Source: Spirochaetia bacterium (GTDB taxonomy: Bacteria > Spirochaetota > Spirochaetia > G963692905). Taken from it: a DNA stretch of 64,000 bases. Of this stretch, positions 6,398-54,862 are shown one piece after another. The stretch's first letter is position 1; every line of letters starts with the position of its first letter. Below the pieces are notes generated by a model. That model saw nothing but the letters and a program-made list of their open reading frames with translations. It was not told the DNA's origin and did not search any database. Both the position numbers and the translations under genes were made by a program. The stretch covers positions 7,143-71,142 of the forward strand of contig CBDCPJ010000053.1 in assembly GCA_965220165.1 (NCBI GenBank), in the 5' to 3' direction.

Positions 6398-6570
6398 CTC
6401 CCCCCTCGCTCCATAGCGCCTCCGAGCCGATCAAAGATCGGCTCGGACCGCGTCCGCCGAATCGGGCTCCACTCGCGCTCCGCCCTGTTGGCCGCTGGCG
6501 CTATTCCGCTACCCCCCTCTGCGGGCGTCGCCTCTCCAATTGCGAGAGACCGGCGCCGCTCAATCGCGCC
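6398..6570. repeat. partial copy (GC-rich module only) of the dispersed ~300-bp repeat family
   Basis: ctcgctccatagcgcc...gctattccgctacccccc aligns with full copies at 36129, 37911, 44824. Central hairpin ccgagccgatc-aaa-gatcggctcgg. Confidence 0.6.
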
Positions 6571-6659
6571 GCCTGCCCAGCAACCATGCCCGCAACGCCC
6601 AAACAAACCTACAATATTCTATCGCGGCGCTCATAGCTCATAGCGGCAAACGGCGCCGT

Positions 6660-7853
6660 CTAAACGCGCTGATATATCGGCAGTTCTCCCGCCAACGGAC
6701 GTATGTAATCAACGCATGCCTGCGTTACCGATATGCCGTCGCTCCCGATAAAATGGTCGGGGAGCGGTTTGGTATTATTTGCGACTTCGCGGAGCGGCAC
6801 CGTTCGGTACTCGACGCGATAGGGGCGCTGGTCGACTCGCTCTATCGACACCATCACACCGCTTACGTTTTCAAGCGCCAATTTCGCGGCTTGTTCTCCG
6901 CACGCGAACGCCTCTTCGCGATCTATTTGGCTGACTCGGTCGTCGGCGCACATCATCAGCGATTCTGGTACTTGGAATTCACCGCGAAAGCCGGTTTGCC
7001 GATGGATGTGGCTATGGAGAGCGATAGCGGCGCTTGCCCCGCTCATCGCGCCGAACTCCATATTGCCGAATCGATCGCGATCGCCGCTGGAAGATACCGG
7101 CGCGCCGTTGTCCCATAGAGCCCCTTCGCCGACCACAGCCGAGCACCAGCCGTATCGCTCGATTGCCTGTTGTACATCGTCGCAAAACGTTTTCCTCGAT
7201 ATCGGGCGTTCCGGCAACCATACAATATGTGGGGGATCACGAGGCTCTTTTTTCGACAGCGCCGCCGCCGCAGCCAGCCATCCGGTGTCGCGCCCCACCG
7301 TCTGATATATGCTGTATTTGTCCACTCGTCGCATATCTTCCGCGAGCCGCCCAGCCTGTTGGATAGAAAGCGCGACATAACGAGCCGCCGACCCGTATCC
7401 CGGCGTATGATCGGTGCCGTAGAGATCGTTGTCTACCGTTTTTGGCACGCCGATGCCGCATAGCGCATGTCCGGCGTCGCGACAGTATGCCTCCACGCGA
7501 TGGATGGTATCCATAGTGTCGTTTCCCCCGATAAGCACCATGGCCGATATGTTCAGGTCGTTCAGAATGCTGGCTATCTTCGGGATGTCGTTGTCTTGTA
7601 GCTTATAGCGGCATGACCCAAGCGCGGACGAGGGAGTGTTCGCGAGGCAACGGAGCGAATCTTCGGAGAGATTGGTAAGATCGGCAAGCTCGCCTTTCAT
7701 GAATCCTTCAATGCCGCCGCGCATCCCATAAATTGTGTTATATTTTCCGCTTTTTTGCGCGGCGCTAATAGCTCCGGCCAAGCTGGAGTTAATAACGGCG
7801 GTTACTCCCCCAGATTGTCCGATGAGCATATTATTTTGCGAAGATGATTTCAT
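6660..7853 (-). CDS. pfk: 6-phosphofructokinase, pyrophosphate-dependent type
   Basis: N-terminal GGVTAVINSS and GGIEGF, MGR, PKTVDND motifs of PFK-A family. Long form typical of PPi-PFK. Confidence 0.8.
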   Translation of the reverse strand: MKSSSQNNMLIGQSGGVTAVINSSLAGAISAAQKSGKYNTIYGMRGGIEGFMKGELADLTNLSEDSLRCLANTPSSALGSCRYKLQDNDIPKIASILNDLNISAMVLIGGNDTMDTIHRVEAYCRDAGHALCGIGVPKTVDNDLYGTDHTPGYGSAARYVALSIQQAGRLAEDMRRVDKYSIYQTVGRDTGWLAAAAALSKKEPRDPPHIVWLPERPISRKTFCDDVQQAIERYGWCSAVVGEGALWDNGAPVSSSGDRDRFGNMEFGAMSGASAAIALHSHIHRQTGFRGEFQVPESLMMCADDRVSQIDREEAFACGEQAAKLALENVSGVMVSIERVDQRPYRVEYRTVPLREVANNTKPLPDHFIGSDGISVTQACVDYIRPLAGELPIYQRV

Positions 7854-33506: not shown

Positions 33507-35738
33507 TTACCGACGATGCTCCCGCGATCGCGACGACGAAACGCGAGGCGGGCGACTCCCCCCGCCCCCGCCCCCGCGGCGAGGAGGTCGACTATCCCGC
33601 GACTGCCGATCGTATGGGCGTCCGCGGTTTTCGGTGGGGCGCTGATTGCCGGTATCGCCGGTATCGTCGTCATCGAGGAGAAGGCCTAAATTGACCCGCC
33701 CCATTTTATCGATTTCGATAATTTGCACATCGAGCACCTGATTAAGCCGCAAAAGATCACCCACCGATTCCAGTCTATTTTTGGACATCTTTGATATGTG
33801 GCATAGCCCTTCTTTGCTGGGGAGAAATTCTATAAACGCGCCAAAATCGACAATTCGCTTAACGGTACCAGAGTAGATTTTGCCTATTTCAGGCTCTTCG
33901 AGCAACTTCTCAAATTCCGCCCGCGCATTTTCGCCATTCTGTTTGTTTTTGCAATAGATGGTAACGAGCCCGGAATCATCAATATTTGTCTCGACGGAAA
34001 AACGCTCGTTGATCCCTTTGATCGTCTTTCCGCCCGCCCCTATAAGCATACCGATAAATTCAGGATTAATCTCGAATTTAATGATTCGCGGAGCATATTC
34101 AGAAAGCTCGGCTTGCGGTTTTTCGATGGCTTGGCCCATAACGGATAGGATATGCATACGACCCTTGCGAGCCTGTTCCAGCGCCTTTTTGAGCACATTC
34201 GCGTCGACATTTTTGATCTTGATATCCATCTGGAACGCGGTGATGCCCTCTTTGGTGCCCGCCACCTTGAAATCCATATCGCCGAAGTGATCCTCCTCGC
34301 CGAGTATGTCGCTGAGGACGATTACGTTTTCGCCCTCTTGCACCAGCCCCATTGCGATTCCCGCAACGGGTTGCTCGATAGGAATGCCGCCGTGCATAAG
34401 CGACAGACTCCCTCCGCATACCGTAGCCATAGACGAGGAGCCATTTGACTCCAATACCTCAGAGACAAGGCGAATAGTGTAGGGAAATTGCTCCCTATCC
34501 GGCAACACCGCGTCTAAAGCCCGATACGCCAAATTGCCATGCCCTATCTCTCGTCGTCCGGTAGCGAGCCGCCCCGTTTCGCCCACCGAGTAGGGAGGGA
34601 AGTTATAGTGGAGCATAAATGGAGACGAGCGGCGGTCGCCCTCGATATCGTCTAAAATCTGTTCGTCGTAGACCGAACCCAGTGTGGTGATGGCCAGCGC
34701 CTGCGTTTCGCCTCGGGTAAAAAGCGCCGACCCGTGCGCGCGATCGAGTATGCCGACCTCGCATTCGATGGGGCGAATATCCTCCGGCTTTCGTCCGTCC
34801 GACCGTAGATTGTTTTCGACAATGGAGCGACGAAGGATATCCTGCTCCAGCTCGTCGGCGATCGCGGCAAAGTACTGCTCGCGATCCTCAGGTATTCGCT
34901 CCCCAAATTGCTTTCGCGTCTCGGCGATGATATCGTTGATTGCCGCGCGACGGATCATCTTCCCCTTTACAAAGCAGGCTCGCTCCATTTTTGGACGCAA
35001 CGCCTCGACGATCTCGTCATGCGCCTCGAGACGATACTCATCGACCACCAGCGGCAACATCGGAGTCGCGACACGCTCCCGAAGCTCCCGCTGCGCCTCG
35101 CACAATTTGGCGATCGGTTGCCGAGCGAGTTCGATCGCCTCCGAAAGAACATCCTCCGAAATCTGATTGGCGCCGCCTTCCACCATAGTGATCCCATCGA
35201 TCGTCCCCGCGACAATGATATCGAGATCGCTTACCTTTGCCTGCTCCAGATTTGGATTGATGATATATTTGCCATCCACATATCCCACACGAACCGCACC
35301 AATTGGCCCGTCGAACGGAATACCCGATATCGAAACCGCCGCCGACGCCGCATTCATCGCCACTACATCGGTAGGCTGAATGCGATCCGCGGACATAACC
35401 GTAGGAATAACCTGGATATCGCGCTTGAACGCCTTAGAAAATAGCGGGCGAATCGGGCGATCGATAAGCCGAGAAACCAGAATCTCTCTGTCCTTCGGAC
35501 GAGCCTCGCGCTTAAGAAACCCGCCGGGGATTTTGCCCGCCGCATAATATTTCTCGTTGTATTCCACATGGAGAGGAATGAAATCGAGCGACTCATCAGC
35601 CTTATCCCCGCAACACACGGTGGCGAGCACCGCAACACCGCCGCAACGGGCAAATATCGAACCATTGGCCTGCTTCGCCATGCGTCCGGTCTGCATGACG
35701 ATCTCCCCGCTTCCAAACGGGATTGTAATCTCTGTCAC
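33507..35738 (-). CDS. pnp: polynucleotide phosphorylase
   Basis: Two RNase PH domains, KH and S1 regions. 743 aa with basic R/G tail. Confidence 0.9.
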   Translation of the reverse strand: MTEITIPFGSGEIVMQTGRMAKQANGSIFARCGGVAVLATVCCGDKADESLDFIPLHVEYNEKYYAAGKIPGGFLKREARPKDREILVSRLIDRPIRPLFSKAFKRDIQVIPTVMSADRIQPTDVVAMNAASAAVSISGIPFDGPIGAVRVGYVDGKYIINPNLEQAKVSDLDIIVAGTIDGITMVEGGANQISEDVLSEAIELARQPIAKLCEAQRELRERVATPMLPLVVDEYRLEAHDEIVEALRPKMERACFVKGKMIRRAAINDIIAETRKQFGERIPEDREQYFAAIADELEQDILRRSIVENNLRSDGRKPEDIRPIECEVGILDRAHGSALFTRGETQALAITTLGSVYDEQILDDIEGDRRSSPFMLHYNFPPYSVGETGRLATGRREIGHGNLAYRALDAVLPDREQFPYTIRLVSEVLESNGSSSMATVCGGSLSLMHGGIPIEQPVAGIAMGLVQEGENVIVLSDILGEEDHFGDMDFKVAGTKEGITAFQMDIKIKNVDANVLKKALEQARKGRMHILSVMGQAIEKPQAELSEYAPRIIKFEINPEFIGMLIGAGGKTIKGINERFSVETNIDDSGLVTIYCKNKQNGENARAEFEKLLEEPEIGKIYSGTVKRIVDFGAFIEFLPSKEGLCHISKMSKNRLESVGDLLRLNQVLDVQIIEIDKMGRVNLGLLLDDDDTGDTGNQRPTENRGRPYDRQSRDSRPPRRGGGGGGSRPPRVSSSRSREHRR

Positions 35739-35740
35739 GG

Positions 35741-36010
35741 CTATTTCCGGAGATTCAACTGACGTAGCACCGATCGATATCGTTCCATATCGTTATTTTG
35801 TAAATATCGAAGCAATCGCCGCCGTTTGCCCACCATCTTGAGCAAGCCCCGCCGCGAGCTATGGTCTTTCGAATGCATCTTAAAATGGTCGGTAAGATAC
35901 CGAATTCGTGTGGTCAACAGGGCTATCTGCACCTCTGTTTTCCCGCTATCTTTGGCAGTTACGCCAAACTGTTTAATAATCGACTGCGTGTCGATCACAC
36001 TACTTGACAT
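35741..36010 (-). CDS. rpsO: 30S ribosomal protein S15
   Basis: 89 aa. [12 protein letters not shown]-like motif. Classic pnp-rpsO pair. Confidence 0.9.
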
Positions 36011-36128
36011 GGTATATACAGTCTCCTTTTATGTGTCACTACGGATATACAAAATATAATAAATCAAAAACCGCATTTATGCAAGGGCATATTTTCAATT
36101 AAAATAATAAGAAGGGGAAATACAAGAA

Positions 36129-36425
36129 GGGGGAAGCCCCCTACGCTCCATAGCGGCTCCGCGTCTCGCAAAGCTCGACGCGGACCGCGTCCGTCTGATC
36201 GGGCTCCGCTCGCGCTCCGCCCTGACAGACGCTGCCGGCTATTGCGCTACCCCCGGGCAACTCTTCAACCGGCCACAAGCCTCCCGCTCCATGACGGGCC
36301 AGCTCCGCGCGAATAGTAGTCGTAGACGATATCGGTATAATTTCACAATAACCTCTTGACATTTATTGAAAAATTGTTAATCACAATGTGAGATAATTTC
36401 TGACTATATTTAAAATGAGGAATAT
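36129..36425. repeat. full copy R1 of ~297-bp composite repeat (GC-rich palindromic module + AT-rich promoter/SD module)
   Basis: Near-identical to 37911-38206 and 44824-45120. Starts with GGGGGAAGCCCCC hairpin. Ends ...TTGACA...TGtGAGATAAT...AAAATGAGGAATAT. Confidence 0.85.
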
Positions 36426-36427
36426 GG

Positions 36428-37789
36428 GTGCAAATGGATGTGAATGATATTGGGTTATACAGTTGGCGGAAGTTCTTTAGAGGATTGGGCAAAAAGCTAT
36501 GTGAGATTGGCGACCAAAATAATCGAAATAATCGAAATGACAAGATGTGCCGGTTAGCGAAGGATATTTTTGGAGATGATAAAGCCAGCGATCCTGTTTC
36601 GTTTGTTTGTCGGTGCTCTCGGAATAAAGATAAAAACACATGGAAAAAAATCACATGGAAAGGTAGCCGAAAAATATGGGTTGCTGTTTGCAGATATCAA
36701 GGATCATAGCTATCCTGTTGCAACAAACGATAAGTATGCCAAGTGTGATGCTAACGAATACAATGCTCTCTGGGAGATATTTGTAGCGGCATACAAAGCG
36801 AAGAAAATCGGTGGATTCGATGTCGATAACGCGCTTCGATTAACCGCCTCGTCGCTAGAGCGCTGTCGATTAAAGAGATCAGCGTTCCAAAGCTTACGCA
36901 TGTGCTTTTTTTGATCAATCCCGATGTTTTTGTCCCCATAGACAAGCACACATGCATTCCGCTCACTGCGATCTATAGCGATAAAGGAAACACAAACAAA
37001 ATTTTGACGAGCATAAAAAAAGGCACGTATAAATATGTTGATGCGGCGAGGGAGTTGTCCGACTGTTTTCCCAAATGTAAGCCATACGAAATATCACTTT
37101 TCTGTCGATTAGCGGCATATTATGTAGATTCTAGAAGCCTGATGGTTAATGCAAGAGATGGGATCAAACAATTAGTGGGCGAGGATTTAGTGGGCGAGGA
37201 TTTTGGGCAGGGATTTTGAGCTGGCTGATGAGGTGAGGTTGGTTTCAGATAAACCGGAAGGCGACGAGGACTCAAAAATGTGGGAATTCAGAGAAAATAA
37301 CCACGTTCGGCTAGGCTTGCTAATAGACGACGAAAGCAATGGTAACCGCGATAACACCACTACTTATTATCGGGATTATGCGAAGGTTAAGCCTGGCTGG
37401 TTCATGATTGCTATCAGTGGGCAATCTGTTTGTATGTTGGGATTGGTGGTACAAAGCTCAGCGTATGGAAAGAATCTGGAGGAATTTAAAAAGGATCAGT
37501 ATCCTATTCATGTAGTCTGGATGAATTGCGAAAAACCTCATAACGTGGATGGAGGCAAGAAGCCTTCCCTACATCGATATAACAGCTCATGGAAGATGGA
37601 GCCCGACGTAGAACAAAATTTTCCCAAATCGTATAGGATTATCAAAGCTATACAAGCCGGGCACCGGTAAAACATATCTTGCAAAAGAAGTTGCAGCTCT
37701 GATAAATATGAATGTGCAGTTCATCCGTCATACGACTATACCGATTTTGTCGAGGGTTTGCGGCCGGTAAATGAGGATAGCGACGCTTG
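36428..37789 (+). pseudogene. McrB-like AAA+ GTPase (5-methylcytosine restriction subunit B family), copy 1, frameshifted and truncated
   Basis: Fragments in three frames. Ends with Walker A KPGTGKTYLAKEVAA and, after repairing 1-nt shift, QFHPSYDYTDFVEGLRPV (McrB signature). Truncated at duplication junction 37789. Confidence 0.6.
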
Positions 37790-37910
37790 ACATGGTATAT
37801 ACAGTCTCCTTTTGTATGTCACTACGGATATACAAAATATAATAAATCAAAAACCGCATTTATGCAAGGGCATATTTTCAATTAAATAATAAGAAGGGGA
37901 AATACAAGAA

Positions 37911-38206
37911 GGGGGAAGCCCCCTACGCTCCATAGCGGCTCCGCGTCTCGCAAAGCTCGACGCGGACCGCGTCCGTCTGATCGGGCTCCGCTCGCGCTCC
38001 GCCCTGACAGACGCTGCCGGCTATTGCGCTACCCCCGGGCAACTCTTCAACCGGCCACAAGCCTCCCGCTCCATGACGGGCCAGCTCCGCGCGAATAGTA
38101 GTTAGACGATATCGGTATAATTTCACAATAACCTCTTGACATTTATTGAAAAATTGTTAATCACAATGTGAGATAATTTCTGACTATATTTAAAAGGAGG
38201 AATATA
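37911..38206. repeat. full copy R2 of composite repeat
   Basis: ~99% identical to R1 (3-bp deletion). Ends AAAAGGAGGAATATA. Confidence 0.85.
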
Positions 38207-38263
38207 GGTGCAAATGATGAGAATGATATTGGGTTATACAGTTGGCGGAAGTTCTTTAGAGGA

Positions 38264-39452
38264 TTGGGCGAAAAGCTATGTGAGATTGACGACCAAAATA
38301 ATCGAAATGATCGAGATGACAAGATGCGCCGGTTAGCGAATGATATTTTTGAAGATGATAAAGCCAGCGATCCTGTTTCGTTTGTTTGTCGGTGCTCTCG
38401 GAATAAAAAACACATGGGAAGGGTAGCCGAAAAATATGGGTTGCTGTTTGCAGATATCAAGGATCATAGCTATCCTGTTGCAACAGACGATAAGTATGCC
38501 AAGTGTGATGCTAGCGAACACGATGCTCTCTGGATGATATTTGTAGTGGCATACAACGCGAAGAAAATCGGTAGATATATCGATTTCGATCACGCGTTTG
38601 TGACTAACCGCATCGTCGATAGAGCTCTGTCGATTAAAGAGATCAGCGTTCCAAAGCTTACGCATGCGCTTTTTTTGATCAATCCCGATGTTTTTGTCCC
38701 CATAGACAAGCACACATGCATTCCGCTCACTGCGAACTATAGAGATAAAGGAGACACAGACAAAATTTTGACGAGCATAAAAAGCGGCACGTATAAATAT
38801 GTTGATGCGGCGAGGGATTTGTCCAACTGTTTTCCCAAACGTAAGCCATACGAAATATCACTTTTCTGTCGATTAGCGTCACCACAACTACTTGCCGGGA
38901 TTATGTGGAGGTTAAGCCTGGATGGTTCATGATTGCTATCAGTGGGCAATCTTTTTGTAAGTTGGGATTGGTGGTACAAAGCTCAGCGGATGGAAAGAAT
39001 CTGGAGGAATTTAAAAAGGATCAGTATCCTATTCATGTAGTCTGGATGAATTTCGAAAAACCTCATAACGTGGATGGAGGCAAGAAGCCTTCCCTACATC
39101 GATATAACAGCTCATGGAAGATGGAGCCCGACGTAGAACAAAATTTTCCCAAATCGTATAGGATTATCAAAGCTATACAAGCCGGGCACCGGTAAAACAT
39201 ATCTTGCAAAAGAAGTTGCAGCTCTGATAAATATGAATTTGTGCAGTTCCATCCGTCATACGACTATGATGAAACGCAAAAGATATATCCCGATTTTTAC
39301 CACAAAGATCAGCCGATAGTATTGTCAGGATACCTATGAGCAAAGACTATAATGATTTTCAGCAGTTCTGTGAGAAAATGGACGAGGCAGAGAAGAAGTT
39401 TATTGAGGAAATAGGCAAGACTGATTGTACATCTGGCAAAAATATTGAGTAA
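38264..39452 (+). pseudogene. McrB-like AAA+ GTPase, copy 2, decayed (N-terminal frameshift, ~250-bp internal deletion, AAA+ region scrambled)
   Basis: ~93% nt identity to copy 1. Retains KPGTGKTYLAKEVAA and FVQFHPSYDY. No McrC partner downstream. Confidence 0.55.
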
Positions 39453-39469
39453 CAAGCGCTTGTTACAAA

Positions 39470-40186
39470 TTAAATACTCGCATTGTCTGCATTACTCCGG
39501 CCTGTTTTCAAGCAATCGCAATCTAAACCCTTCAAAATATTTCTAACAGATTCAATTTTAACTAGTTCGATAACAAAGTAGCGTAGGTTCTGCGGCGCGC
39601 CATGCGCGCGAGACCATACTATTTCATTATAGTCTATTTCTAGTAGTTCGCAGAACTCCTGCCCGGTAAGTACCTCTTCATAGTTTATTTTTTTCTTAAA
39701 ACCGTTCACAATAGCGTTTCGGTCATCCTGATTGAAACAGCAAAAATGCGCTTTTACTTTGTATGGCACATTACGCGCGGTCTCTTCGATAAAAGATTTC
39801 ATAGCATTTTTTTCGGCATCTGACTTCTTGGTATCAAACGAATCTCCGTCTTTCAGTTCTACCAGATGACAATATTGTTCGCCCATTCTGTGTTTGAAGA
39901 TCATAAAATCCGGTTCGAATCCTTTTTTTGTACTTAGGGCATTGCATTTTTTGACTTTTTGCTTATCTGCTACTACAACCCCTTCCGGCATGCTTTGCAT
40001 CGAAAGAAAATCGTCCAAGTCTTCTATCAACGTGACTTTATTTTTAATAATGCGTTCCAATTCGGTGCCCGCTGATATCATGGCTGAATGGGCACGGCTT
40101 ACCAAACACCCTACTTCATCGTCTCCGAATAGGCGACTGTATCCGCTTCCCTTCGATCGTCCCTTCGCGTTTTCTATAAGCGCCAT
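39470..40186 (-). CDS. putative Type II restriction endonuclease (PD-ExK fold)
   Basis: FEPDFMIFKH...HLVELKDG gives PD...ExK spacing. Start codon adjacent to (abuts) methyltransferase stop (TAGATG). Confidence 0.5.
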   Translation of the reverse strand: MALIENAKGRSKGSGYSRLFGDDEVGCLVSRAHSAMISAGTELERIIKNKVTLIEDLDDFLSMQSMPEGVVVADKQKVKKCNALSTKKGFEPDFMIFKHRMGEQYCHLVELKDGDSFDTKKSDAEKNAMKSFIEETARNVPYKVKAHFCCFNQDDRNAIVNGFKKKINYEEVLTGQEFCELLEIDYNEIVWSRAHGAPQNLRYFVIELVKIESVRNILKGLDCDCLKTGRSNADNASI

Positions 40187-40984
40187 CTAGCCGTTCAGGT
40201 CGCAGCCCAGAAAGTCGCGTTTCTGTAGCTTGCAGGCCTCCATCACCGAAAAACTTCCAGCGGCCGGGTCGATCACAATATCGCCCTCGTTGGATACGGC
40301 GGCAATCAATGTGCCTTGCAGGTTGATAGGCTTCTTATGCGTGTGTCCGCTTCTTTGTACCTTCTCCACCAATACATCGGGAATGTCGTGAATCTTCCAG
40401 ACCCCTTTTGCCCTTAGCGGCTTTTTTTGCAACACTACGACATGCTCGCTGGATCGACGCGTCCGATACCCCATGCCGATTCTGTCTTTATGCCACGTAA
40501 CCATATCCACGACGCTCAGATGCGTTTCGTTCAGCCACTCCGAAAATCCGGTGCAAAGGTGAAATTTGTCCATCCAGAGAAAAAGATGGCCGCTTGGTAT
40601 CAGGACATTGGATATTCTCCGTATAAATTGGCATATTTTTTCCTCGTCCATCTGCTCCAGCGCAAAACGTTGTTGCCCGCGATTTTTGCCCTCGTTGCCA
40701 TACCCCAATTTATCCAGCACGCCTCGATATTGCGGATCAAAAAAAGCGACGGGAATGCTGTCTGCGGGCAATTTGCCAAGGAATTTCAGTCCGTCCATTT
40801 TCAGGCGCGTATTGAGGCGCAATCCTCGCGGAATTGCTATTTTGGGAGATTGAACTTCCCGATTGTTGCCAAACACAGTATTCTGCGTCGTATCGGGGAT
40901 AGGATCGGCATTTTTTATCTTTCGAGCCGGGCTGCTCATAAATTTGCTCCCGAACAGGGCAAGCAATTGCATTTGGCGCCGCAT
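40187..40984 (-). CDS. beta-class DNA methyltransferase (N6-adenine or N4-cytosine), motif IV variant DPQY
   Basis: ...LPADSIPVAFFDPQY (motif IV) precedes HTHKKPINLQGTLIAAVSNEGDIVIDPAAGSFSVMEACKLQKRDFLGCDLN (motif I, FxGxG-type). Order IV->I indicates beta class. Confidence 0.75.
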   Translation of the reverse strand: MRRQMQLLALFGSKFMSSPARKIKNADPIPDTTQNTVFGNNREVQSPKIAIPRGLRLNTRLKMDGLKFLGKLPADSIPVAFFDPQYRGVLDKLGYGNEGKNRGQQRFALEQMDEEKICQFIRRISNVLIPSGHLFLWMDKFHLCTGFSEWLNETHLSVVDMVTWHKDRIGMGYRTRRSSEHVVVLQKKPLRAKGVWKIHDIPDVLVEKVQRSGHTHKKPINLQGTLIAAVSNEGDIVIDPAAGSFSVMEACKLQKRDFLGCDLNG

Positions 40985-41065
40985 AGCGCTTGGGCTTGCG
41001 GAATATCCATTCTATAAAGGTTCATAGCGCTACGTGTTGTCTCCAATTCATCAGGCATTATTGAG

Positions 41066-41127
41066 ATTATATTGAACACAATAATTGTTTTCATCAAGTA
41101 CTATTATTATATTTAACACAATAATCG
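41066..41127. promoter_or_regulatory. pair of 22-bp direct repeats, each with internal dyad TATTG-N4-CAATA, upstream of R-M operon
   Basis: ATTATATTGAACACAATAATTG at 41066 and ATTATATTTAACACAATAATCG at 41106. 40-bp phasing. 80-140 nt upstream of methyltransferase start. Confidence 0.4.
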
Positions 41128-41158
41128 CCCGTTTTTACAATTCAGCAACTATTTCTTT

Positions 41159-43003
41159 TCATAGACAATCCCTAATCAGCGAACGATGCCACTTTAAGAG
41201 CATATCATGCGATCGAGCGGCCACCGACGCGTCGGGATGCTCTACATCCACGATAATGCGCAAGAGCGGCTCGGTGCCCGACTGACGCATCCAGAGCGAC
41301 GCGGCGGGCACCCCGTCGCAGCGACTGACGACAATCTTGATGCCGCCGCTCGATGGCGGCCGTTCCTGACCAGTGGCGACAATCTCGCGGTCGCCCGTCG
41401 AGTAGATCGCGCGGGGCGTTGAACTCGCCGCCCACAACAGCGCCGCTTGGCGGTGAAACGGTGTATCCTCGCGGCTCCACCGCTCCCGAAAAAGCTCCCG
41501 ATATCTTCGGGTAAACCCTCCCCAATCCTCTACGGAAAGCTCCATTTTGGCGCGAGAATCGCCGGTTTCGGTCGTCGCAAAGCTCGGCAACGAAGCGATA
41601 AGAAGCCCTATCGACCGATCCGCCTCTATGCGGCCGCCCCCGCGCCGCAACCGCGAGCGATCGATCCAGCGATCAAACAGCGCAATGCCCCGCTCGTCGT
41701 CGGCAAATAAGAGCGACAGCAGGCTCCCGATAGCCAGCAGCGGGTCTCGGACGGTCGACGGCGACATAATTGCCCCGCCATTCGATCCTTCGCCCGCAAT
41801 CGGCACATGGTAGCCCTTTTCAGCCAGCCGCTCGGCCAACGAAACGACATTCGCCTCGCCCACCTCGGCGCGATAGACCGCCGCCCCAAAACTGGCCGCG
41901 ATGCGGTCGATGGCGAACGACGTGGGCGCGTTGATCGCGACGGCGATCGGGCGTTGGCGACCGCTTTTCGCCGTCTGGCGAGCGAGCGTCGCGATAACCG
42001 CCACAGCAAACATCTGCTGCGCGGTCAACACCTTGCTCTCCGCGCCGTCCCAATAGCAAATATTGCCCCGATCGCCATCGCAGTCGGGCATATACCCAAA
42101 CGCGACATCCCGCGCGCCGGAGCCCTGCAGCGAAAGCTCCGCTCGGCATGCCTCCAACGAGTCGCCCTCCGGAACGATGGCATGCGCGATCTCGTCGGCA
42201 TTGAGTTCCGCCAGTTGGACGCCGGAGCCGCGCAACATTGCCCGATCGATGGAGGTCGCCCGCGCGCTTCCGTTGTAATCCATCACCACGCGGCACCCTC
42301 GCTCGCGGATACGCCGCGCGATCGTGTCGCCAAAGTCCATCGACCCGTCGCCCATCGACCCGTCGAGCCGGCCGCTCTCCCGCATATCCCCCGCCGCCCC
42401 CACATCTCCAGAGATAATCTTCCGACACTGCGTCGCGTAGCATCGACGAGCGACCGCCCGCGCATCGGGAGTCGCGCTATAGACAGCCTCTATTCGCGAC
42501 GGATCGACCGATAAACATTTCCGCTCGATCGACGCCCATCGTTCGGGCATAGCGCGCAACGCGGCGAAACGGGAAAGCGTCGCCTCCGCGCGATCAGGAG
42601 CAAGTATACGGCCGTCGCCCATCGCCAACTTGATCCCATTGTACCCAATTGGATTATGGCTTGCGGTAATGCACAGCGCGGCCGCTATCTGGCTATCAAC
42701 GCGCGCATAGCAGAGGAGCTCGGTAATCGGCGCCACATCAAGGTAGCGAACCGAATGGCCGCGAGCAAGGAGCGCCGCGATTATTGCCCGCGCCAACGGC
42801 TCGCCGGTGGGGCGACTATCGCGCGCCAACGCGATTGCCCCGACACCCGTCCCCCCGGAATCCTCGCCGTCTAGGTAGTCGCAGAACGCCCAAACGACCA
42901 GCGTAAATAATGTAAGACGCGGCGGCGCCACAAGAGGCGATCTACTCTCGGGATTATCATCTCCCGCTGCTATCGCACGGTATCCAGATATTGAAGCAAT
43001 CAT
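41159..43003 (-). CDS. phosphoglucomutase/phosphomannomutase family protein
   Basis: Active-site CITASHNPIGYNGIKLA (TASHNP phosphoserine loop). 614 aa. Confidence 0.8.
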   Translation of the reverse strand: MIASISGYRAIAAGDDNPESRSPLVAPPRLTLFTLVVWAFCDYLDGEDSGGTGVGAIALARDSRPTGEPLARAIIAALLARGHSVRYLDVAPITELLCYARVDSQIAAALCITASHNPIGYNGIKLAMGDGRILAPDRAEATLSRFAALRAMPERWASIERKCLSVDPSRIEAVYSATPDARAVARRCYATQCRKIISGDVGAAGDMRESGRLDGSMGDGSMDFGDTIARRIRERGCRVVMDYNGSARATSIDRAMLRGSGVQLAELNADEIAHAIVPEGDSLEACRAELSLQGSGARDVAFGYMPDCDGDRGNICYWDGAESKVLTAQQMFAVAVIATLARQTAKSGRQRPIAVAINAPTSFAIDRIAASFGAAVYRAEVGEANVVSLAERLAEKGYHVPIAGEGSNGGAIMSPSTVRDPLLAIGSLLSLLFADDERGIALFDRWIDRSRLRRGGGRIEADRSIGLLIASLPSFATTETGDSRAKMELSVEDWGGFTRRYRELFRERWSREDTPFHRQAALLWAASSTPRAIYSTGDREIVATGQERPPSSGGIKIVVSRCDGVPAASLWMRQSGTEPLLRIIVDVEHPDASVAARSHDMLLKWHRSLIRDCL

Positions 43004-43119
43004 ATAGTATCTATCGGAAAAATGCGTTCTTTTTTCGAATCGCGACGCATGAATTTAATATCTTCTTGCCTTATATAGATAACAATAAAGCGAAGACATG
43101 CCGACATTCAACAGAATAC

Positions 43120-44298
43120 ATGAAGATAGCGAGATACATACAGAAAATTATAAACATTGTCATTCGATGGGTGCGGATATCGCAATATGCCCGCCCCACG
43201 CTCTTTTTCCTCTTTTTTCTCGTTATCTGCGCCGCCCTCGCGGTGATGTTCGAAATGAACACCAACGGACAGTTCAACAACATTATCGACGGGTTTTGGT
43301 GGGTTATTATCACCTTTAGCACCACCGGTTATGGAGACAAGGTGCCGGTAACAATTGGCGGTCGCATCATCGCCATTTTGACGATATTGATCGGAATCAC
43401 CGGCATGAGTCTGTTATCGGGCGGATTGGCGTCATGGTTGGTAGAACGAAATACTAGGGCAAGGAGAGGTCTTGTGGATTACAGCTATCTTAAAAATCAT
43501 ATTATTGTCTGCGGATGGAAACCCGATATGGCCGACATACTATTGGGGATGATCGCGTCCGCCGACGATCTGTCGGGCGAAAATATTGTGATTATATCCA
43601 ATGTTCCCAGCGAGCGCATCGACGCGCTGCATGACAGAGACGAACTGCGCGCGGTGCGATTTGTGCACGGCGACTATTTTTCCGAAACGCCATTGTTGCG
43701 CGCGGGAGTCAAGAAGGCCAAAAAGGTGATGATTCTCGCCGACTCGCTAGAGAGCCATGGAGTTACGGAGGTCGATTCAAAAACCGTATTGGCGGTGTTG
43801 ACGATCAAATCGATATCTCGCGAAGTCTACGTTACCGCCGAACTTCTTGATAAAAAGTATGAAAGCTACCTCAAACAGGCCGCTTGCGACGAAATTCTTT
43901 TCAGTCAAGAAATGTCGCGCCACCTTTTGGCCAGCGCCTCGCATACCAATGGACTAAGCCACATATTTTACGCGTTGCTCTCTCATAACGAGCATCAAGT
44001 TCGCCTCACAACCGTTGAAATCCCCGCGATGTTTATCGAGCGAACCTACACCGACTTTAAGGAACACGTAGAAAAGCAGGAGCGCTGTCAGTTGATCGGG
44101 GTATTAGAGAATGCCGGATCGCCGGCGCGAATGAAAATAGACGCGCTTCGTTCGGCGCAAAAAACTTCGGATGTCTCTCGATTGATCAACAACCTCCAGC
44201 GAGTCAAAGGGCTAGAGGTAAACAGGCCGGTATTCACGCCGCCCAGCGACTATAAAATCAACGCAAACTCCCTCGGCATTTTAGTGGAGCATATTTAG
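43120..44298 (+). CDS. 2-TM potassium channel with C-terminal RCK (TrkA-N) domain
   Basis: Selectivity filter TTGYGD between two TM helices. Rossmann-like HIIVCGWKPDMADILL (RCK). Track ORF from 42991; start more likely Met at 43120. Confidence 0.75.
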   Translation: MKIARYIQKIINIVIRWVRISQYARPTLFFLFFLVICAALAVMFEMNTNGQFNNIIDGFWWVIITFSTTGYGDKVPVTIGGRIIAILTILIGITGMSLLSGGLASWLVERNTRARRGLVDYSYLKNHIIVCGWKPDMADILLGMIASADDLSGENIVIISNVPSERIDALHDRDELRAVRFVHGDYFSETPLLRAGVKKAKKVMILADSLESHGVTEVDSKTVLAVLTIKSISREVYVTAELLDKKYESYLKQAACDEILFSQEMSRHLLASASHTNGLSHIFYALLSHNEHQVRLTTVEIPAMFIERTYTDFKEHVEKQERCQLIGVLENAGSPARMKIDALRSAQKTSDVSRLINNLQRVKGLEVNRPVFTPPSDYKINANSLGILVEHI

Positions 44299-44299
44299 T

Positions 44300-44794
44300 A
44301 TGAGCAGAGCGGAGATATTTCAAAAGCTAGAGCAGATCCACATCTTTGAGAAGCTCTGCTCAAGCTCTGAAGACGCGGACAGGTTGATAAACATTATCCG
44401 CCGCGTAAAATATCAAAAAAATAGGATAGTGATTCATGAAGGCGAATTGGGAAACGATATGTTCATCGTCTATTCCGGATCGGTGCAGATACGAAAACGC
44501 ACGCGAGCGGGCGACAGCTACACGGTGGTCAACCTCTCCGCCGATCAAAATGTTTTCTTTGGCGAACTGGCGCTGATCGACGACGACAAACGATCGGCGA
44601 CCGTCCGCACCTTGAGCGACTGCGAATTTTTAGTGCTCGATAAGGCCGATTTCATCAAACTGGGCAACGACTATCCACACATCGCCCTGCCCATCACCCG
44701 CGCGATCTCGCAAATTCTCGCCGGCCGATTGCGACGCACGACAGCCGATATGCTTACCATTTTCGACGCGCTGGTCAACGAGCTATCGGGATAA
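44300..44794 (+). CDS. stand-alone cyclic-nucleotide-binding (CNB) domain protein
   Basis: FGELALIDDDKRSATVRT...DF motifs of CAP-family cNMP-binding fold. 164 aa, no output domain. Start 1 nt after channel stop. Confidence 0.75.
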   Translation: MSRAEIFQKLEQIHIFEKLCSSSEDADRLINIIRRVKYQKNRIVIHEGELGNDMFIVYSGSVQIRKRTRAGDSYTVVNLSADQNVFFGELALIDDDKRSATVRTLSDCEFLVLDKADFIKLGNDYPHIALPITRAISQILAGRLRRTTADMLTIFDALVNELSG

Positions 44795-44823
44795 TCCCCC
44801 ACAATACAATACAATATCATAAG

Positions 44824-45120
44824 GGGGAAGCCCCCTACGCTCCATAGCGGCTCCGCGTCTCGCAAAGCTCGACGCGGACCGCGTCCGTCTGATCGGGCTC
44901 CGCTCGCGCTCCGCCCTGACAGACGCTGCCGGCTATTGCGCTACCCCCGGGCAACTCTTCAACCGGCCACAAGCCTCCCGCTCCATGACGGGCCAGCTCC
45001 GCGCGAATAGTAGTCGTAGACGATATCGGTATAATTTCACAATAACCTCTTGACATTTATTGAAAAATTGTTAATCATAATGTGAGATAATTTCTGATTA
45101 TATTTAAAAGGAGGAATATA
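44824..45120. repeat. full copy R3 of composite repeat, abutting oppA start codon
   Basis: Identical architecture to R1/R2. Ends AAAAGGAGGAATATA immediately before ATG 45121. Confidence 0.85.
45050..45114 (+). promoter_or_regulatory. repeat-borne promoter-like module and Shine-Dalgarno for oppA
   Basis: TTGACA 45050-55. Extended -10-like TGaGATAAT 45083-91. AAGGAGG 45108-14, 6 nt before ATG. Confidence 0.45.
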
Positions 45121-46704
45121 ATGGCGCATAAATTTATCTTATTATTTGTCATGGCTTTTGTAGCCATTTCAGGCATCTCATTTGCTGGCGGCGAAGCCGA
45201 ACTCGGCGACGAAGCCGTAACGTTTCGAATCGGAAACGGCGCGGAGCCAGAATCGCTCGACCCTCATCTGGTTTCTGGCGTTCCGGAGCATCGTATTTTT
45301 TATTCGTTATTCGAAGGGTTGGTCACCAACGATCCGCAAACCAACGAGGCTGTCCCCGGCGTAGCGGAACGATGGGATATTAGCGACGACAGAACCGTAT
45401 ATACCTTTTATCTTCGTCGAACGACTTGGAGCGATGGCGTCCCTATTACCGCGCAGACGGTGTATGATTCATGGATTCGCGTTCTTGATCCCGAAACCGC
45501 TTCTCCGTACGCATGGTTTCCGGGTCTATTTATCAGCGGAGCTGATGAATACAACGGCGGCGAAGCCGGCCCAGATGTCGTAGGCATTAGAGTGGTAGAC
45601 GACTATACGTTCGAGGTCCAGCTAGCCGGACCGTTGCCATACGCGCTTGGCGCGCTGACCCACTATTCATTTGGCATCGTTCCCCTGCACGCTATCGAAG
45701 AGCATGGCACGGAATGGACGTTGGCGGAAAATTTTGTGGGAAATGGCCCGTTTATGCTTGAGGAATGGTTGCCGCAGCAACAACTCTCTGTCGTTCCCAA
45801 CCCATTATATTGGGACGCCGATGCCGTAAGCCTAGACCGCGTAGTCTATTTACCCATCGAGGATAATAACACAGGATACAATATGTTCCTGAACGGCGAA
45901 CTGGATTGGCAAACGACAGTGCCTAACGATCAGGTCGAACAGGCCCGTCTCGAACAGGGCTACAATCGCAACGCGCAGTTGGCCACGTACTATTATCACC
46001 TAAATAACAAGCGTCCTCCGTTGGACGATGAGCGTGTAAGAAAGGCTCTGGCTATCTCTATTGATAGAAACGAGCTGGTCGAAACGGTTACTCGGGCGGG
46101 GCAGATACCCGCGTATGGCATTGTTCCCGCGCTATCCGGATACGAGGCGACGGTAGCTTTCCAAGAAGATACCGATCAGGCGAGGCGATTACTAGAAGAG
46201 GCAGGCTTTCCGGGCGGAGAAGGTTTTCCGGAATTGCAAATTCTCTACAATACCAGCGAAGGGCATAAAAAGATCGCCGAGTATATTCAGCAACAATGGA
46301 AGGAGATCCTTGGAATCGACGTTTCGCTCATCAACCAAGAGTGGAAAACATATTTGAGCACGACGCGAGAGCATGATTTTGATATTGCTCGCGCCGGTTG
46401 GGTTGGCGACTATCAGGATCCAAATACCTTCCTTGATCTCTTTATTACCGATGGCGGTCTCAATAATAGCGACTACAGCAACCCGAGATACGACGAATTG
46501 ATTGAGCGAGCGTCTTCAATGTCGGCTGGAAGCCAACGATTCAATGTGTTGCGAGAGGCGGAAGAGCTTTTTATAGGCGAAGATCATGGAATTATACCGA
46601 TCTACTACTATGTCACGCTCAATATGATTGATACTAATAAGTGGGGTGGTTGGTACAAAAACGTACAGGATTTTCATCCTACCAAAGACATTTATAGGAA
46701 GTAG
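45121..46704 (+). CDS. oppA: oligopeptide ABC transporter substrate-binding protein (family 5)
   Basis: Signal peptide. 527 aa. Family-5 SBP composition. Followed by oppBCDF. Confidence 0.85.
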   Translation: MAHKFILLFVMAFVAISGISFAGGEAELGDEAVTFRIGNGAEPESLDPHLVSGVPEHRIFYSLFEGLVTNDPQTNEAVPGVAERWDISDDRTVYTFYLRRTTWSDGVPITAQTVYDSWIRVLDPETASPYAWFPGLFISGADEYNGGEAGPDVVGIRVVDDYTFEVQLAGPLPYALGALTHYSFGIVPLHAIEEHGTEWTLAENFVGNGPFMLEEWLPQQQLSVVPNPLYWDADAVSLDRVVYLPIEDNNTGYNMFLNGELDWQTTVPNDQVEQARLEQGYNRNAQLATYYYHLNNKRPPLDDERVRKALAISIDRNELVETVTRAGQIPAYGIVPALSGYEATVAFQEDTDQARRLLEEAGFPGGEGFPELQILYNTSEGHKKIAEYIQQQWKEILGIDVSLINQEWKTYLSTTREHDFDIARAGWVGDYQDPNTFLDLFITDGGLNNSDYSNPRYDELIERASSMSAGSQRFNVLREAEELFIGEDHGIIPIYYYVTLNMIDTNKWGGWYKNVQDFHPTKDIYRK

Positions 46705-46720
46705 ATAATACTTCCACACA

Positions 46721-47650
46721 ATGACGAAGTATATTATCCAGCGTGCCGCGGGGATTATCCCCGCCGTGCTGGCTATCGTCACCATAAGCTTTTTCATCAT
46801 TCGGATCGCTCCCGGCGGTCCGTTTGATGTAGAGCGTAAATTGCCCGAGCAGGTCTTGCGCAATATCGAGGCAAAGTACCACTTAGATGAACCGCTGGTT
46901 CAGCAATACTTTCGATACATTGGCAATTTGCTTCGCGGCGATCTCGGTCCCTCCTATCGATATCATGATCATGATGTCAATTTTTTTATATTTAGCAGTC
47001 TGCCGCACTCTATCCTGCTTGGAGGAGTAGCGTTGATCTTAGCGTTGCTCGCGGGCATCGTTGTCGGTATCATATCGGCGTTACGGCAAAATAGGTGGAT
47101 CGATTACAGCTCGATGTTTGTCGCGGTGTTTGGCATATCCGTCCCCGCATTTGTCATTGGGCCTGTATTGGTCTATTGGTTTTCCATTCAATTAAAAATT
47201 TTTCCTACGTCCGGATGGATCAACGTAGGCGGGGGAATTCGCAGTCTTATATTGCCGGTAATTACGTTGTCGTTATTTTATTTTGCCACAATCGCTCGGC
47301 TCAGTCGCGCCGGAATTATCGAAGTATTGCGTAGCGACTATGTTCGCACCGCGCGAGCCAAAGGATTGCCGACCGGATTGATTGTGGTCAAACATGTGCT
47401 TAAAGGAGCGTTGTTGCCGGTGGTAAGCTATCTTGGCCCCGCGATGGCCGCCATCGTCACCGGATCGGTGGTAGTAGAGACGATCTTTCTTATTCCCGGA
47501 TTGGGGCGATTCTTTGTGCAATCGGCATTTAACCGCGACTATACGTTGCTTTTGGGTTCGGTAATCGTATATTCGGTGTTATTGATAATTCTTAATTTCA
47601 TTGTCGATATTCTATATGGGTTGCTTGATCCCCGCATATCCTACAGTTAA
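46721..47650 (+). CDS. oppB: oligopeptide ABC permease
   Basis: 6-TM BPD-transporter permease with EAA loop region. Confidence 0.85.
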   Translation: MTKYIIQRAAGIIPAVLAIVTISFFIIRIAPGGPFDVERKLPEQVLRNIEAKYHLDEPLVQQYFRYIGNLLRGDLGPSYRYHDHDVNFFIFSSLPHSILLGGVALILALLAGIVVGIISALRQNRWIDYSSMFVAVFGISVPAFVIGPVLVYWFSIQLKIFPTSGWINVGGGIRSLILPVITLSLFYFATIARLSRAGIIEVLRSDYVRTARAKGLPTGLIVVKHVLKGALLPVVSYLGPAMAAIVTGSVVVETIFLIPGLGRFFVQSAFNRDYTLLLGSVIVYSVLLIILNFIVDILYGLLDPRISYS

Positions 47651-47664
47651 GGGAGTATAATATT

Positions 47665-48777
47665 ATGAACACTATACAGACCGAACAAAACGAACAGGGC
47701 CATAAAAATCTTGCGCTGGTCGACAACGAACAGCTCCAAACTGTTCGAAGGATTAGCCTCGGGCAAGACGCCTGGAGGCGACTAAAGAAAAATAGGCTTG
47801 CTTTGGCGGGTCTTGTCATCGTAATCGCATATTCATTGATATGCCTCTTGGCGCCGATTCTTCCCTTCTATTCCTTTTCCTATCAAGTGCCCGAACATAA
47901 TTTTCTGCCGCCGTCGCTCACAAAAACCGGAGGCGAGCTATGGCTGGAGCGAGAGACAAATTATACCTCGCAACTGGCAGCGGTCGAAGATCGCGCGATA
48001 TCTTCGGAAGAGCGCTCTGAACTGGACGATATACGACGACGCGTTTCCGAAGGAGAAACGCATGTCTTTGAGGGCAAAGAGATAAGCCTGCATGATCGAA
48101 AATATCTATTGGGCACCGATTACCTAGGACGAGATATGTTGGCGCGTATCGTTTACGGCGGACAGATTTCAATTTCGATCGGCCTCCTTGGGGCGATTAC
48201 CAGCGTTATTATTGGAATCATCGTTGGGGCTATATCGGGATATGTGGGGGGCAAAGTAGATTATATCATCACGCGATTTATAGACATCCTCTATTGTCTT
48301 CCCTATATGTTGCTGGTGATTATTCTTATGGCGTTGTTTGGACAAAATACTATCAACCTTTTTATCGGGCTCTCGATGATTAGCTGGTTAACGGTTGCTC
48401 GAGTAGTTCGCGGGCAAATTATTTCATTAAAAAATTCGATATTTGTCGAAGCCTCTCGTTCGGTGGGTTCCAGCGTTATGAGAATAATTTTTCGTCATCT
48501 CGTGCCCAATACGTTGGGCGTTATCATTGTATTTGCTAGTTTGCGCGTTCCCGCTTTTATACTGTTGGAGGCGTTTCTCTCATTTCTAGGATTGGGCGTT
48601 TCGGCTCCTCTCGCATCGTGGGGCTCGTTGCTTCGCGACGCTACCGATGGGCTTTCGCTCTATCCATGGCGGCTATTTTGGCCGGCGATTGTTATGAGTG
48701 TTTTCCTCCTTTCGATGAATTTCCTTGGCGATGGATTGCGCGACGCATTTGATCCCCAAAGCAAAAATCTTCTGTAA
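47665..48777 (+). CDS. oppC: oligopeptide ABC permease
   Basis: OppC/DppC-like, N-terminal extension. 370 aa. Confidence 0.85.
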   Translation: MNTIQTEQNEQGHKNLALVDNEQLQTVRRISLGQDAWRRLKKNRLALAGLVIVIAYSLICLLAPILPFYSFSYQVPEHNFLPPSLTKTGGELWLERETNYTSQLAAVEDRAISSEERSELDDIRRRVSEGETHVFEGKEISLHDRKYLLGTDYLGRDMLARIVYGGQISISIGLLGAITSVIIGIIVGAISGYVGGKVDYIITRFIDILYCLPYMLLVIILMALFGQNTINLFIGLSMISWLTVARVVRGQIISLKNSIFVEASRSVGSSVMRIIFRHLVPNTLGVIIVFASLRVPAFILLEAFLSFLGLGVSAPLASWGSLLRDATDGLSLYPWRLFWPAIVMSVFLLSMNFLGDGLRDAFDPQSKNLL

Positions 48778-54543: not shown

Positions 54544-54699
54544 ATTTCCTCCATAGACGGTGAATATCTATAGATAGTATAGGCGCTATTTTTCGATTGC
54601 GCAAGCCATGGTTTCGTCGCTTCGATTACGGAGGGGCAAGGTTGATTGTTTTGTTGGGCGTTGCGGGCCATTTTTCTGGAATATTTCCAACTGGGCGAT

Positions 54700-54790
54700 T
54701 GGCGCCCGCAGAGGGGGGTAGCGGAATAGCGCCTGCGAGCCGAGCTTTGATCGGCTCGCAGGCGCTATGGAGCGAGGGGGGAGACAGCGA
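54700..54790. repeat. partial, shortened copy (reverse orientation) of GC-rich repeat module
   Basis: gaggggggtagcggaatagcgcctgcgagccga-gctttga-tcggctcgcaggcgctatggagcgaggggggag. Perfect 16-bp central stem. Mirror G6 tracts. Confidence 0.6.
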
Positions 54791-54862
54791 AAACAGAGGC
54801 GTATGCCGAAGCGAAGGGACGCTTGTCGATTGATGCGGGTTATATCAATAGGCGTCATACTT

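Follow-up and report, generated by a model that had tools for sequence, protein, structure and literature searches.

Gene content of the locus

The window analysed here is a 64-kb stretch (64,000 nt) from an uncultured Spirochaetaceae bacterium, and its features around rpsO are listed in Table 1. The order rpsO-pnp-dut matched that of related Spirochaetaceae loci, where a single-copy rpsO stands in the series infB-rbfA-truB-ribF-rpsO-pnp-dut; the genes from infB through ribF are absent from the window. An island with a GC content of 39-44%, versus 54-60% in the flanks, lies upstream of rpsO. It contains an intact type II restriction-modification (R-M) pair, identified with PADLOC (REase_II, 4e-47; MTase_II, 7e-82), and the methyltransferase matched Pfam N6_N4_Mtase. 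Comparison with orthologous loci, proposed in the initial annotation for recovering a single-copy ancestral state, showed a single-copy rpsO and no island in the relatives; with Pnp identities of at most 69% and ribF upstream, it did not show the ancestral state of the duplication described below.

Table 1. Features at and around the duplicated segment (positions are those of the window)
Feature	Position	Strand	Remarks
pnp	33507-35738		begins 2 nt after rpsO; followed by dut
rpsO (S15, 89 aa)	35741-36010	-	from ORF list; 51-63% identical to rpsO of related Spirochaetaceae loci
Duplication unit, copy 1	36003-37785		1783 nt; repeat search, local alignment and MAFFT alignment
Original rpsO 5' region, AT-rich	36011-36127	-	candidate promoter TTGCAT-N17-TATTAT, SD AAAGGAGA, ATG at 36010; read from sequence
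R1a, 300-nt dispersed repeat	36126-36427	+	ends just before McrB start
Terminator-like hairpin AGGGGGCTTCCCCCT with T-rich tail	36128-36142	-	just upstream of rpsO promoter region
McrB-family pseudogene, copy 1	36428-37785	+	residues ~1-471 of intact homologues; cut by duplication joint
Chimeric ORF MSSVAILIYRPQTLDKIGIVV*, 21 codons	37728-37793	-	starts with rpsO codons 1-2, continues antisense to McrB
Copied rpsO start and whole upstream region	37786-37909	-	ATG at 37793 plus 5 nt
R1b	37908-38207	+	core 219/219 identical to R1a
McrB-family pseudogene, copy 2	38208-39267	+	ends after HPSYDY
Tail without McrB/McrC similarity	39268-39469		would mark where a deletion or replacement took out the remaining mcrB and mcrC
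Type II R-M pair, intact	39470-40984	-	REase 39470-40186; N4/N6 MTase (265 aa) 40187-40984
R1c	44820-45122	+	98%; directly before ATG (45121-45123) of SBP_bac_5/opp-like ABC operon

Both McrB-family copies were assigned by alignment to three intact homologues (P0001-3; 678-702 aa, with DUF8425, AAA_5 and McrB_lid), which covered 97-99% of the reconstructed 449 aa at E-values of 2e-29 to 5e-19; the family assignment was thus shown from the reconstructed protein. The DUF8425-type N-terminal region, the Walker A motif PGTGKT and the QFHPSYDYTDFVEG signature all aligned. McrBC systems are modification-dependent restriction systems, in which McrB joins a variable N-terminal reader domain to an AAA_5 GTPase and McrB_lid and McrC comes next. 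The window differs from an intact McrBC system in that it retains only about residues 1-471 (mapped, 4-471), twice and in frameshifted or deleted form, and in the absence of mcrC, which follows the gene for P0001. No other mcrB and no mcrC were found in the 64-kb window, and no McrC-like sequence followed either copy. The AAA_5 core is reduced to the remnant PGTGKT ... (E)FVQFHPSYDYTDFVEGLRP with the first P-loop glycine replaced, the NCBIfam McrB match was weak (E 7e-4, far below the cut-off), and single pseudogene ORF fragments had no Pfam matches.

Multiple frameshifts and deletions were present in each copy, which upheld the earlier designation of both as pseudogenes. Copy 1 carries a 19-nt insertion, small indels and the frameshifts in the Walker A region that it shares with copy 2. 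Because 1 nt (36436 G) is missing from copy 2, as had been noticed before, its GTG start (38208) is out of frame; its N-terminal domain nevertheless remains open over 222 codons (ORF 38264-38932) in AT-rich DNA. A frame break before PGTGKT and a loss between AALI and (E)FVQFHPSYDY are common to copy 1, copy 2 and a contig of a second strain (L081). As these two frameshifting deletions flanking Walker A occur in both copies, inactivation preceded the duplication or was spread across it. Judged by these lesions and the absence of mcrC, the McrB relics are not a functional McrBC system.

The repeat R1 consists of three parts: a GC-rich core of nested palindromes (36141-36256 in R1a), a spacer that is also GC-rich, and a promoter-like/SD module rich in AT. 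A covariance model located five copies of the core in the window (36141-36256, 37923-38038, 44835-44950, 6404-6518 and, on the minus strand, 54712-54777), all of them intergenic. Stem variants (TCCGCGTC/GACGCGGA, TCCGAGCC/GGCTCGGA and TGCGAGCC/GGCTCGCA) showed three changes affecting both sides of the stem and left no pair broken, among only three distinct sequences. The core had no matches in GTDB species genomes and none in JGI metagenomes (two patterns), 20 loci of related spirochetes contained no convincing match to the covariance model, and R1 is unrelated to described Rfam families, none of which matched at E<=1 within 35700-39600. In the whole window, only two tRNAs reached the gathering score.

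REP/BIME elements are intergenic palindromic repeats, and the Correia elements of Neisseria are small repeats that bear promoters. R1 resembles these in its GC-rich, intergenic, multi-copy core with nested hairpins and compensatory changes, and in that R1a-c place a promoter-like/SD module directly before genes. It differs in that no RAYT, transposase, terminal inverted repeats or target duplications were noticed around R1 in the window. By its layout, R1 is a REP-like palindrome joined to a putative promoter/ribosome-binding module.

The tandem repeat and the copied rpsO start

A repeat search and local alignment revealed that unit 1 recurs head to tail, without spacer, from 37786 to ~39267. 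Identity was 1426/1475 aligned positions or 96.7% (local alignment, 36003-37739 vs 37786-39267), higher than the ~93% estimated before. The direct repeat was thereby confirmed in the assembled sequence as real and far beyond chance, in agreement with the tandem duplication originally reported. TRF was blind to this repeat, its period limit of 500 nt being below 1.8 kb. Homology begins at 36003 and not at 35998, and the joint lies at 37785/37786, where ...GATAGCGACG (ending in GCGACG) is followed by CTTGACATGG. Only 8 nt of rpsO (ATGTCAAG) were therefore copied rather than the 13 bp described initially. Unit 2 further contains the rpsO upstream region in its full length of 115 nt, R1 and the first two-thirds of the McrB-family gene. 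At the joint, which contains no Ns, McrB codon ~471 meets rpsO codon 3. No long endpoint homology was detected, and CACACTA to the left of 36003 differs from the sequence to the left of 37786.

Copy 2 has an internal deletion, as the initial annotation had stated, with a size of 239 nt rather than ~250 bp and with fuzzy edges (37115-37353, MAFFT alignment). What had been taken as a 33-nt local duplication in copy 1 corresponds to two arrays of 15 nt x2, at 36632-36661 (single in copy 2) and at 37172-37203 (in sequence that copy 2 has lost). Only 46 nt separate the endpoint of the duplication, 37785, from a deletion breakpoint of copy 2, an observation that counts against the explanation preferred below.

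Between the copied and original rpsO 5' regions (~125-140 nt compared), an indel in a T-run and two substitutions occur upstream of the SD, and both SD and ATG are kept. The orientation of this near-intact region, antisense to copy 1, was as described before; its activity as a promoter is what we infer. TTGCAT-N17-TATTAT is a candidate rpsO promoter on our reading of the sequence, and a consensus scan called an rpsO promoter in neither copy. The hairpin AGGGGGCTTCCCCCT recurs at 37910-37924. A structured S15 autoregulatory leader was rejected: no Rfam S15 leader matched at E<=1 within 35700-39600, and the folds were no better than those of shuffled sequences (z-scores +1.06 and +0.29). The sequence of the predicted short ORF was exact, and its minus-strand coordinates were corrected from 37797-37732 to those in Table 1. 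Searches for exact protein records returned none for the joint ORF, a copy-1 ORF, the R1b ORF, RpsO and the LptF-like protein.

Divergence between the copies and the second strain

Differences between copies 1 and 2 were distributed unevenly, with 4/433 in the left part, 36/660 in the N-terminal domain and 4/315 in the right part (Fisher p 4e-5 and 1.5e-3). Divergence was ~0.6% in R1, 5.5% in the N-terminal domain and 1.3% in the 3' part; the promoter-like/SD modules of R1 have stayed 99-100% identical. Of 32 differences scored in the true frame of the N-terminal domain, 31 were non-synonymous and 1 was synonymous, with ~8 synonymous ones expected (permutation p ~0.001). By this count the differences are not neutral, and the divergence of the DNA-recognition domain looks imported or selected. 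Coding in another frame or strand was rejected as an explanation for the codon-position bias, all other frames having 3-25 stops. DGR-type mutagenesis was likewise rejected: the differences were not adenine-specific (12/34 at A of copy 1, 10/34 at A of copy 2). The ORF list contained no RT-sized ORF between rpsO and the R-M genes.

The contig L081 starts inside copy 2, short of the joint, which no independent contig crosses, and is 99.66% identical overall to window positions 38755-48208. Of its 26 differences, 17 are located in the 400-nt stretch that belongs to copy 2, with copy-1 alleles at 10 of these sites. The copy-2 deletion and tail are kept in L081, which has 7-nt and 2-nt insertions in addition. 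This mosaic indicates, as far as two haplotypes can, an exchange between copies or alleles. Since the divergence is heterogeneous and L081 combines copy-2 structure with copy-1 alleles, the copies would appear to exchange sequence, and percent identity therefore does not date the duplication. The conclusion that the duplication is old because of ~93% identity was not supported, and the neutral decay that it implied is contradicted by the shared Walker A deletions and the 31:1 ratio. The near-identity of R1 and of the 3' part would be due to the same exchange.

The pattern resembles concerted evolution or gene conversion of tandem paralogues in that near-identical sequence flanks a diverged block and alleles of one copy occur inside the other in the second strain. 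It differs in that, with two haplotypes, allelic recombination between strains is inseparable from intragenomic conversion.

Origin and significance of the duplication

The locus is probably a genuine scar of a 1,783-bp tandem duplication of an already crippled mcrB and the rpsO 5' region, followed by decay and exchange and with negligible function. Structure, lesions, heterogeneous divergence and allele mosaic were observed directly, and the following order of events was inferred from them. The setting is a low-GC defence island where synteny breaks directly upstream of rpsO-pnp-dut. Here, codon ~471 of the crippled McrB-family gene would have been linked to rpsO codon 3 by an illegitimate join without endpoint repeat, so that each unit holds the complete rpsO 5' region (probable promoter, SD and ATG), R1 and the first two-thirds of mcrB. 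Copy 2 would afterwards have lost 239 nt internally and everything past HPSYDY, mcrC included. Both copies appear to have persisted in at least two strains, exchanging sequence by gene conversion or allelic recombination. The 31:1 excess does not fit a dead gene that was simply duplicated and drifted, and an extra step is needed: a diverged allele may have been imported, or the N-terminal module may have been under selection.

RecA-independent tandem segmental duplications of bacterial chromosomes arise by illegitimate joins that produce chimeric gene starts or capture promoters. The structure shares with them the head-to-tail units, the one novel joint, the lack of a long endpoint repeat and the copying of a promoter and gene start. 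It differs from them in having lasted long enough for separate indels to arise, in its mosaic divergence that does not follow a clock, and in containing only pseudogene and non-coding material. Conflict between McrBC and incoming methyltransferases is established (PMC2614495, PMC2993543, PMC8989522), and methylation by the neighbouring R-M system could have made McrBC a liability.

A false duplication, in which a chimeric read or a mis-join would have placed two strain alleles of a single-copy locus in series, was considered very unlikely. The window looks metagenomic, with only 69% Pnp identity to the nearest GTDB species; L081 ends within the repeat; and conserved flanks around a hypervariable N-terminal domain with its non-synonymous excess, together with this mosaic third haplotype, resemble the allelic variation of defence genes. 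However, overlap and k-mer assemblers need reads that contain the joint, ...GCGACG and CTTGACAT share no bridging sequence, and the joint is free of Ns. For a random chimera to connect two points of one locus at a distance of 1.8 kb, and in the same orientation, is very improbable, and this geometry is what characterizes a tandem duplication. The non-neutral differences could also mean that the truncated McrB 5' modules serve, now or recently, as diverged DUF8425 cassettes with their own R1 promoters that change restriction specificity, swapping segments mutually or with an intact mcrB elsewhere. The non-synonymous excess (p ~0.0009), the open copy-2 N-terminal domain, the patchy allele exchange in the second strain and the near-identical R1 promoter/SD modules would fit, but the frameshifts in both copies, the displaced copy-2 start and the insertions in L081 do not; within 64 kb there is no intact mcrB or mcrC and no recombinase nearby, and the argument depends on 32 differences in two haplotypes. 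We regard this reading as unlikely. Its extended form, a reservoir of positively selected, conversion-shuffled cassettes that would switch the specificity of a modification-dependent restriction enzyme by analogy with the silent surface-antigen cassettes of spirochetes, was judged more doubtful still.

Retention of the duplication for a useful additional rpsO promoter or leader appears highly improbable. Such an element could act as a second, upstream read-through promoter for rpsO-pnp, as an S15-binding decoy or as an antisense silencer. Tandem repeats are recombinationally unstable, and this one survived the strain split; over ~125 nt, the copied 5' region has diverged very little (1 indel, 2 substitutions) and has retained SD and ATG. 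The adjoining 3' pseudogene segment is at least as well conserved, however; a terminator-like hairpin stands between the transcript of the copied promoter and rpsO, and no S15 leader structure was recognizable. Under the preferred duplication scar, the orphan promoter/leader may transcribe antisense through the dead copy 1 up to the hairpin/T-run of R1a (36142-36128), and this transcript would yield a 21-residue peptide. The functional consequence of the duplication is probably negligible.

Apart from the non-neutral differences between its copies, the locus is an ordinary genomic scar. It is a cautionary case in which the copying of an essential gene's promoter and start codon would be incidental to a structural accident within a defence island undergoing decay, and in which percent identity is a poor clock for tandem copies that still recombine. 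Two further results may prove more important. The non-neutral differences in the McrB reader domain hint that specificity modules are under selection or are exchanged. The lineage-specific REP-like palindrome travels with a promoter/SD module and stands before the opp operon as well as before the McrB relics.

Structure of the duplication and its joint

The tandem duplication proposed in the initial annotation is real, and its outline was correct: the unit is repeated at 96.7% identity in a local alignment (1426/1475 aligned positions), above the ~93% first estimated, and the joint was read in the sequence as ...GATAGCGACG/CTTGACATGG at 37785/37786. The rpsO start was copied as described, over 8 nt and not 13 nt. 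On the minus strand copy 2 starts with ATGTCAAG, followed by the whole 115-nt AT-rich rpsO upstream region and the Shine-Dalgarno sequence, which differ from the original by one T-run indel and two substitutions. The predicted short minus-strand ORF, the chimeric MSSVAILIYRPQTLDKIGIVV*, is also present, 4 nt away from its first assigned position. The copy-1 duplication endpoint (37740-37785) and the copy-2 deletion breakpoint (39268-39300) lie 46 nt apart within the McrB coding sequence, both near a common CCGATTTT octamer; the site may be prone to recombination, or the proximity may be coincidental.

No function is needed to account for the duplication. A candidate rpsO promoter, TTGCAT-N17-TATTAT, was read by eye; the consensus scan did not call an rpsO promoter, and no S15 leader structure was detectable by Rfam search and folding. 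If active, the copied promoter would drive antisense RNA over the dead copy 1 as far as the R1a hairpin (36142-36128) and lead to a peptide of 21 aa.

Coordinates of features in and around the duplicated units
Feature	Position	Strand	Basis or remark
pnp	33507-35738		ORF list; 2 nt from rpsO, which lies upstream; then dut
rpsO	35741-36010	-	ORF list
Unit, copy 1	36003-37785
Unit, copy 2	37786-~39267
Chimeric ORF	37793-37728	-
McrB copy 1	36428-37785	+	pseudogene
McrB copy 2	38208-39267	+	pseudogene
Repeats R1a, R1b, R1c	36126-36427, 37908-38207, 44820-45122
R1 core copies	6404-6518, 36141-36256, 37923-38038, 44835-44950	+	covariance model
R1 core, short form (66 nt)	54712-54777	-	covariance model; perfect 18-bp stem
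73-codon ORF in R1	36141-36362 (L081 3153-3374)	-
20-nt direct repeats	41066-41085, 41106-41125
Indels of 1, 2 and 1 nt	non-coding part of units		inter-unit alignment
19-nt indel	copy 1		local 15-nt x2 duplication
3-nt and 1-nt indels	copy 2		inter-unit alignment
239-nt deletion	copy 2		inter-unit alignment
Small indels	near 37713-37722		inter-unit alignment

The R1 repeat family

The dispersed repeat R1 spans 300 nt and occurs a third time (98%) in a copy whose end directly abuts the start codon of an SBP_bac_5/opp-like ABC operon. A GC-rich nested palindrome makes up the 5' part of R1, and its AT-rich 3' third carries TTGACA, an extended -10-like TGaGATAAT and AGGAGG. A covariance model based on two of the variants detected five copies of the core within the window; the main stem is maintained via compensatory changes across all three variants. 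The similarity between 6330-6680 and 54560-54860 also extends ~100 nt into the flanks on either side. Searches of GTDB species genomes, JGI metagenomes and the related spirochete loci turned up no member, and Rfam gave no match; the palindromes form a lineage-specific, REP/BIME-like family. R1a-c, with palindrome, promoter-like region and AGGAGG, precede both McrB relics and the opp-like operon and are ~99% alike. The block resembles either a portable promoter/RBS module or three upstream regions evolving in concert. At the left end, just upstream of each rpsO promoter region, a hairpin and T-run on the minus strand resemble a terminator. The 73-codon ORF, which the public contig of a second strain (L081) lists as a gene, stops exactly at this hairpin and T-run, and its start, ATGTCAAG, is an 8-mer identical to the copied rpsO start at the joint; the ORF is probably a GC-rich artefact and the match a coincidence.

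The McrB relic and its surroundings

The coding part of the unit belongs to the McrB family. A query reconstructed from both copies matched full-length proteins of 678-702 aa (E 2e-29 to 5e-19, 97-99% of the query covered) with DUF8425/AAA_5/McrB_lid architecture, and McrC follows the best-matching homologue in its locus. The window copies align with residues 4-471 only; no other mcrB and no mcrC were found within the 64-kb window. A frame break before PGTGKT with loss of the first P-loop glycine, and a loss between AALI and (E)FVQFHPSYDY, are common to copy 1, copy 2 and L081, so either the ATPase part was already dead when the duplication occurred or the lesions spread between copies later. 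Copy 1 terminates at the joint, whereas the McrB homology of copy 2 ends after HPSYDY, 46 nt before the equivalent point of copy 1, and is followed by a 200-nt unrelated tail and an intact Type II restriction-modification (R-M) pair (REase_II 4e-47, MTase_II 7e-82). Since incoming methyltransferases can make McrBC lethal to its own host (PMC2614495, PMC2993543, PMC8989522), loss of mcrBC beside a newly acquired R-M system would be a plausible history. The 20-nt direct repeats (ATTATATTGAACACAATAAT, 95% identical, 40 nt apart) lie just upstream of the MTase/REase operon and may be an operator controlling it.

The DNA comes from an uncultured Spirochaetaceae bacterium (Pnp identity to the nearest species genome, 69%). 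The comparison of orthologous loci suggested initially gave a single rpsO in each relative, in the order infB-rbfA-truB-ribF-rpsO-pnp-dut-lptF/G; synteny with the window is kept downstream of rpsO and absent upstream. In the window, rpsO-pnp is parted from its usual operon partners infB-rbfA-truB-ribF (compared with loci L001-L008), and infB through ribF are not present anywhere. GC content is 39-44% from rpsO to the MTase versus 54-60% in the flanks. Low GC and loss of upstream synteny thus place the duplication at a rearrangement breakpoint, within a defence island that looks foreign. As a duplication it is ordinary, but its place is unusual. The Pnp C-terminus (33507-33680) carries a ~50-residue extension rich in Arg, Gly, Pro and Ser (...RDSRPPRRGGGGGGSRPPRVSSSRSREHRR); matches end at query residue ~684-695 in most relatives and reach residue 716-742 in L006, L007, L009, L010 and L017.

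Divergence, exchange and history of the copies

L081, one independent contig (ENA ERZ25072490, 3.95x coverage, named in long-read-assembler style), is 99.66% identical to window 38755-48208 and has the deletion and tail specific to copy 2; its end lies within copy 2, short of the joint. That the duplication is an assembly artefact is very unlikely: a mis-join would require reads containing the joint, since nothing is shared across it, and a random chimera linking points of the same locus and orientation 1.8 kb apart is hardly expected. The duplication and the copy-2 deletions are older than the split of the two strains.

Outside the duplication L081 differs from the window by 0.1%; within copy 2, 17 positions differ in 400 nt, and 10 of these 17 carry the exact copy-1 allele, so sequence is being exchanged between the copies or between population alleles. 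Several private SNPs also fall in these 400 nt, with private insertions of 7 nt (GCCTGCT) and 2 nt at window-equivalent 38840 and 38860; over the other 9 kb only 9 sites differ. Change in the pseudogene block is therefore far faster than in its surroundings.

The copies differ at 4/433 aligned sites in the left non-coding part, within which the R1 core is identical (219/219), at 36/660 in the N-terminal domain and at 4/315 in the 3' part; comparing each flank with the middle by Fisher test gave p 4e-5 and 1.5e-3. The true McrB frame remains open in copy 2 as a 222-codon ORF. Read in it, 31 of the 32 N-terminal substitutions change the amino acid, and seven are N<->D. Some 6.9 synonymous changes were expected by counting (binomial p 0.008) and ~8.1 by a permutation preserving substitution spectrum and base composition (P(<=1) ~0.0009). 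Such an excess is not what neutral decay would be expected to give in a dead duplicate. Coding in another frame was rejected as its cause, as no other frame is open, and so was adenine-targeted mutagenesis, as the pattern is not adenine-specific. Most simply, the N-terminal block of one copy would have been replaced by, or have descended from, a diverged allele shaped by selection in functional genes. A cassette-like role of the N-terminal blocks is very unlikely.

Divergence between the copies is no clock. The simple ageing first proposed gives way to earlier pseudogenisation, later deletions beside the R-M system and continuing recombination.
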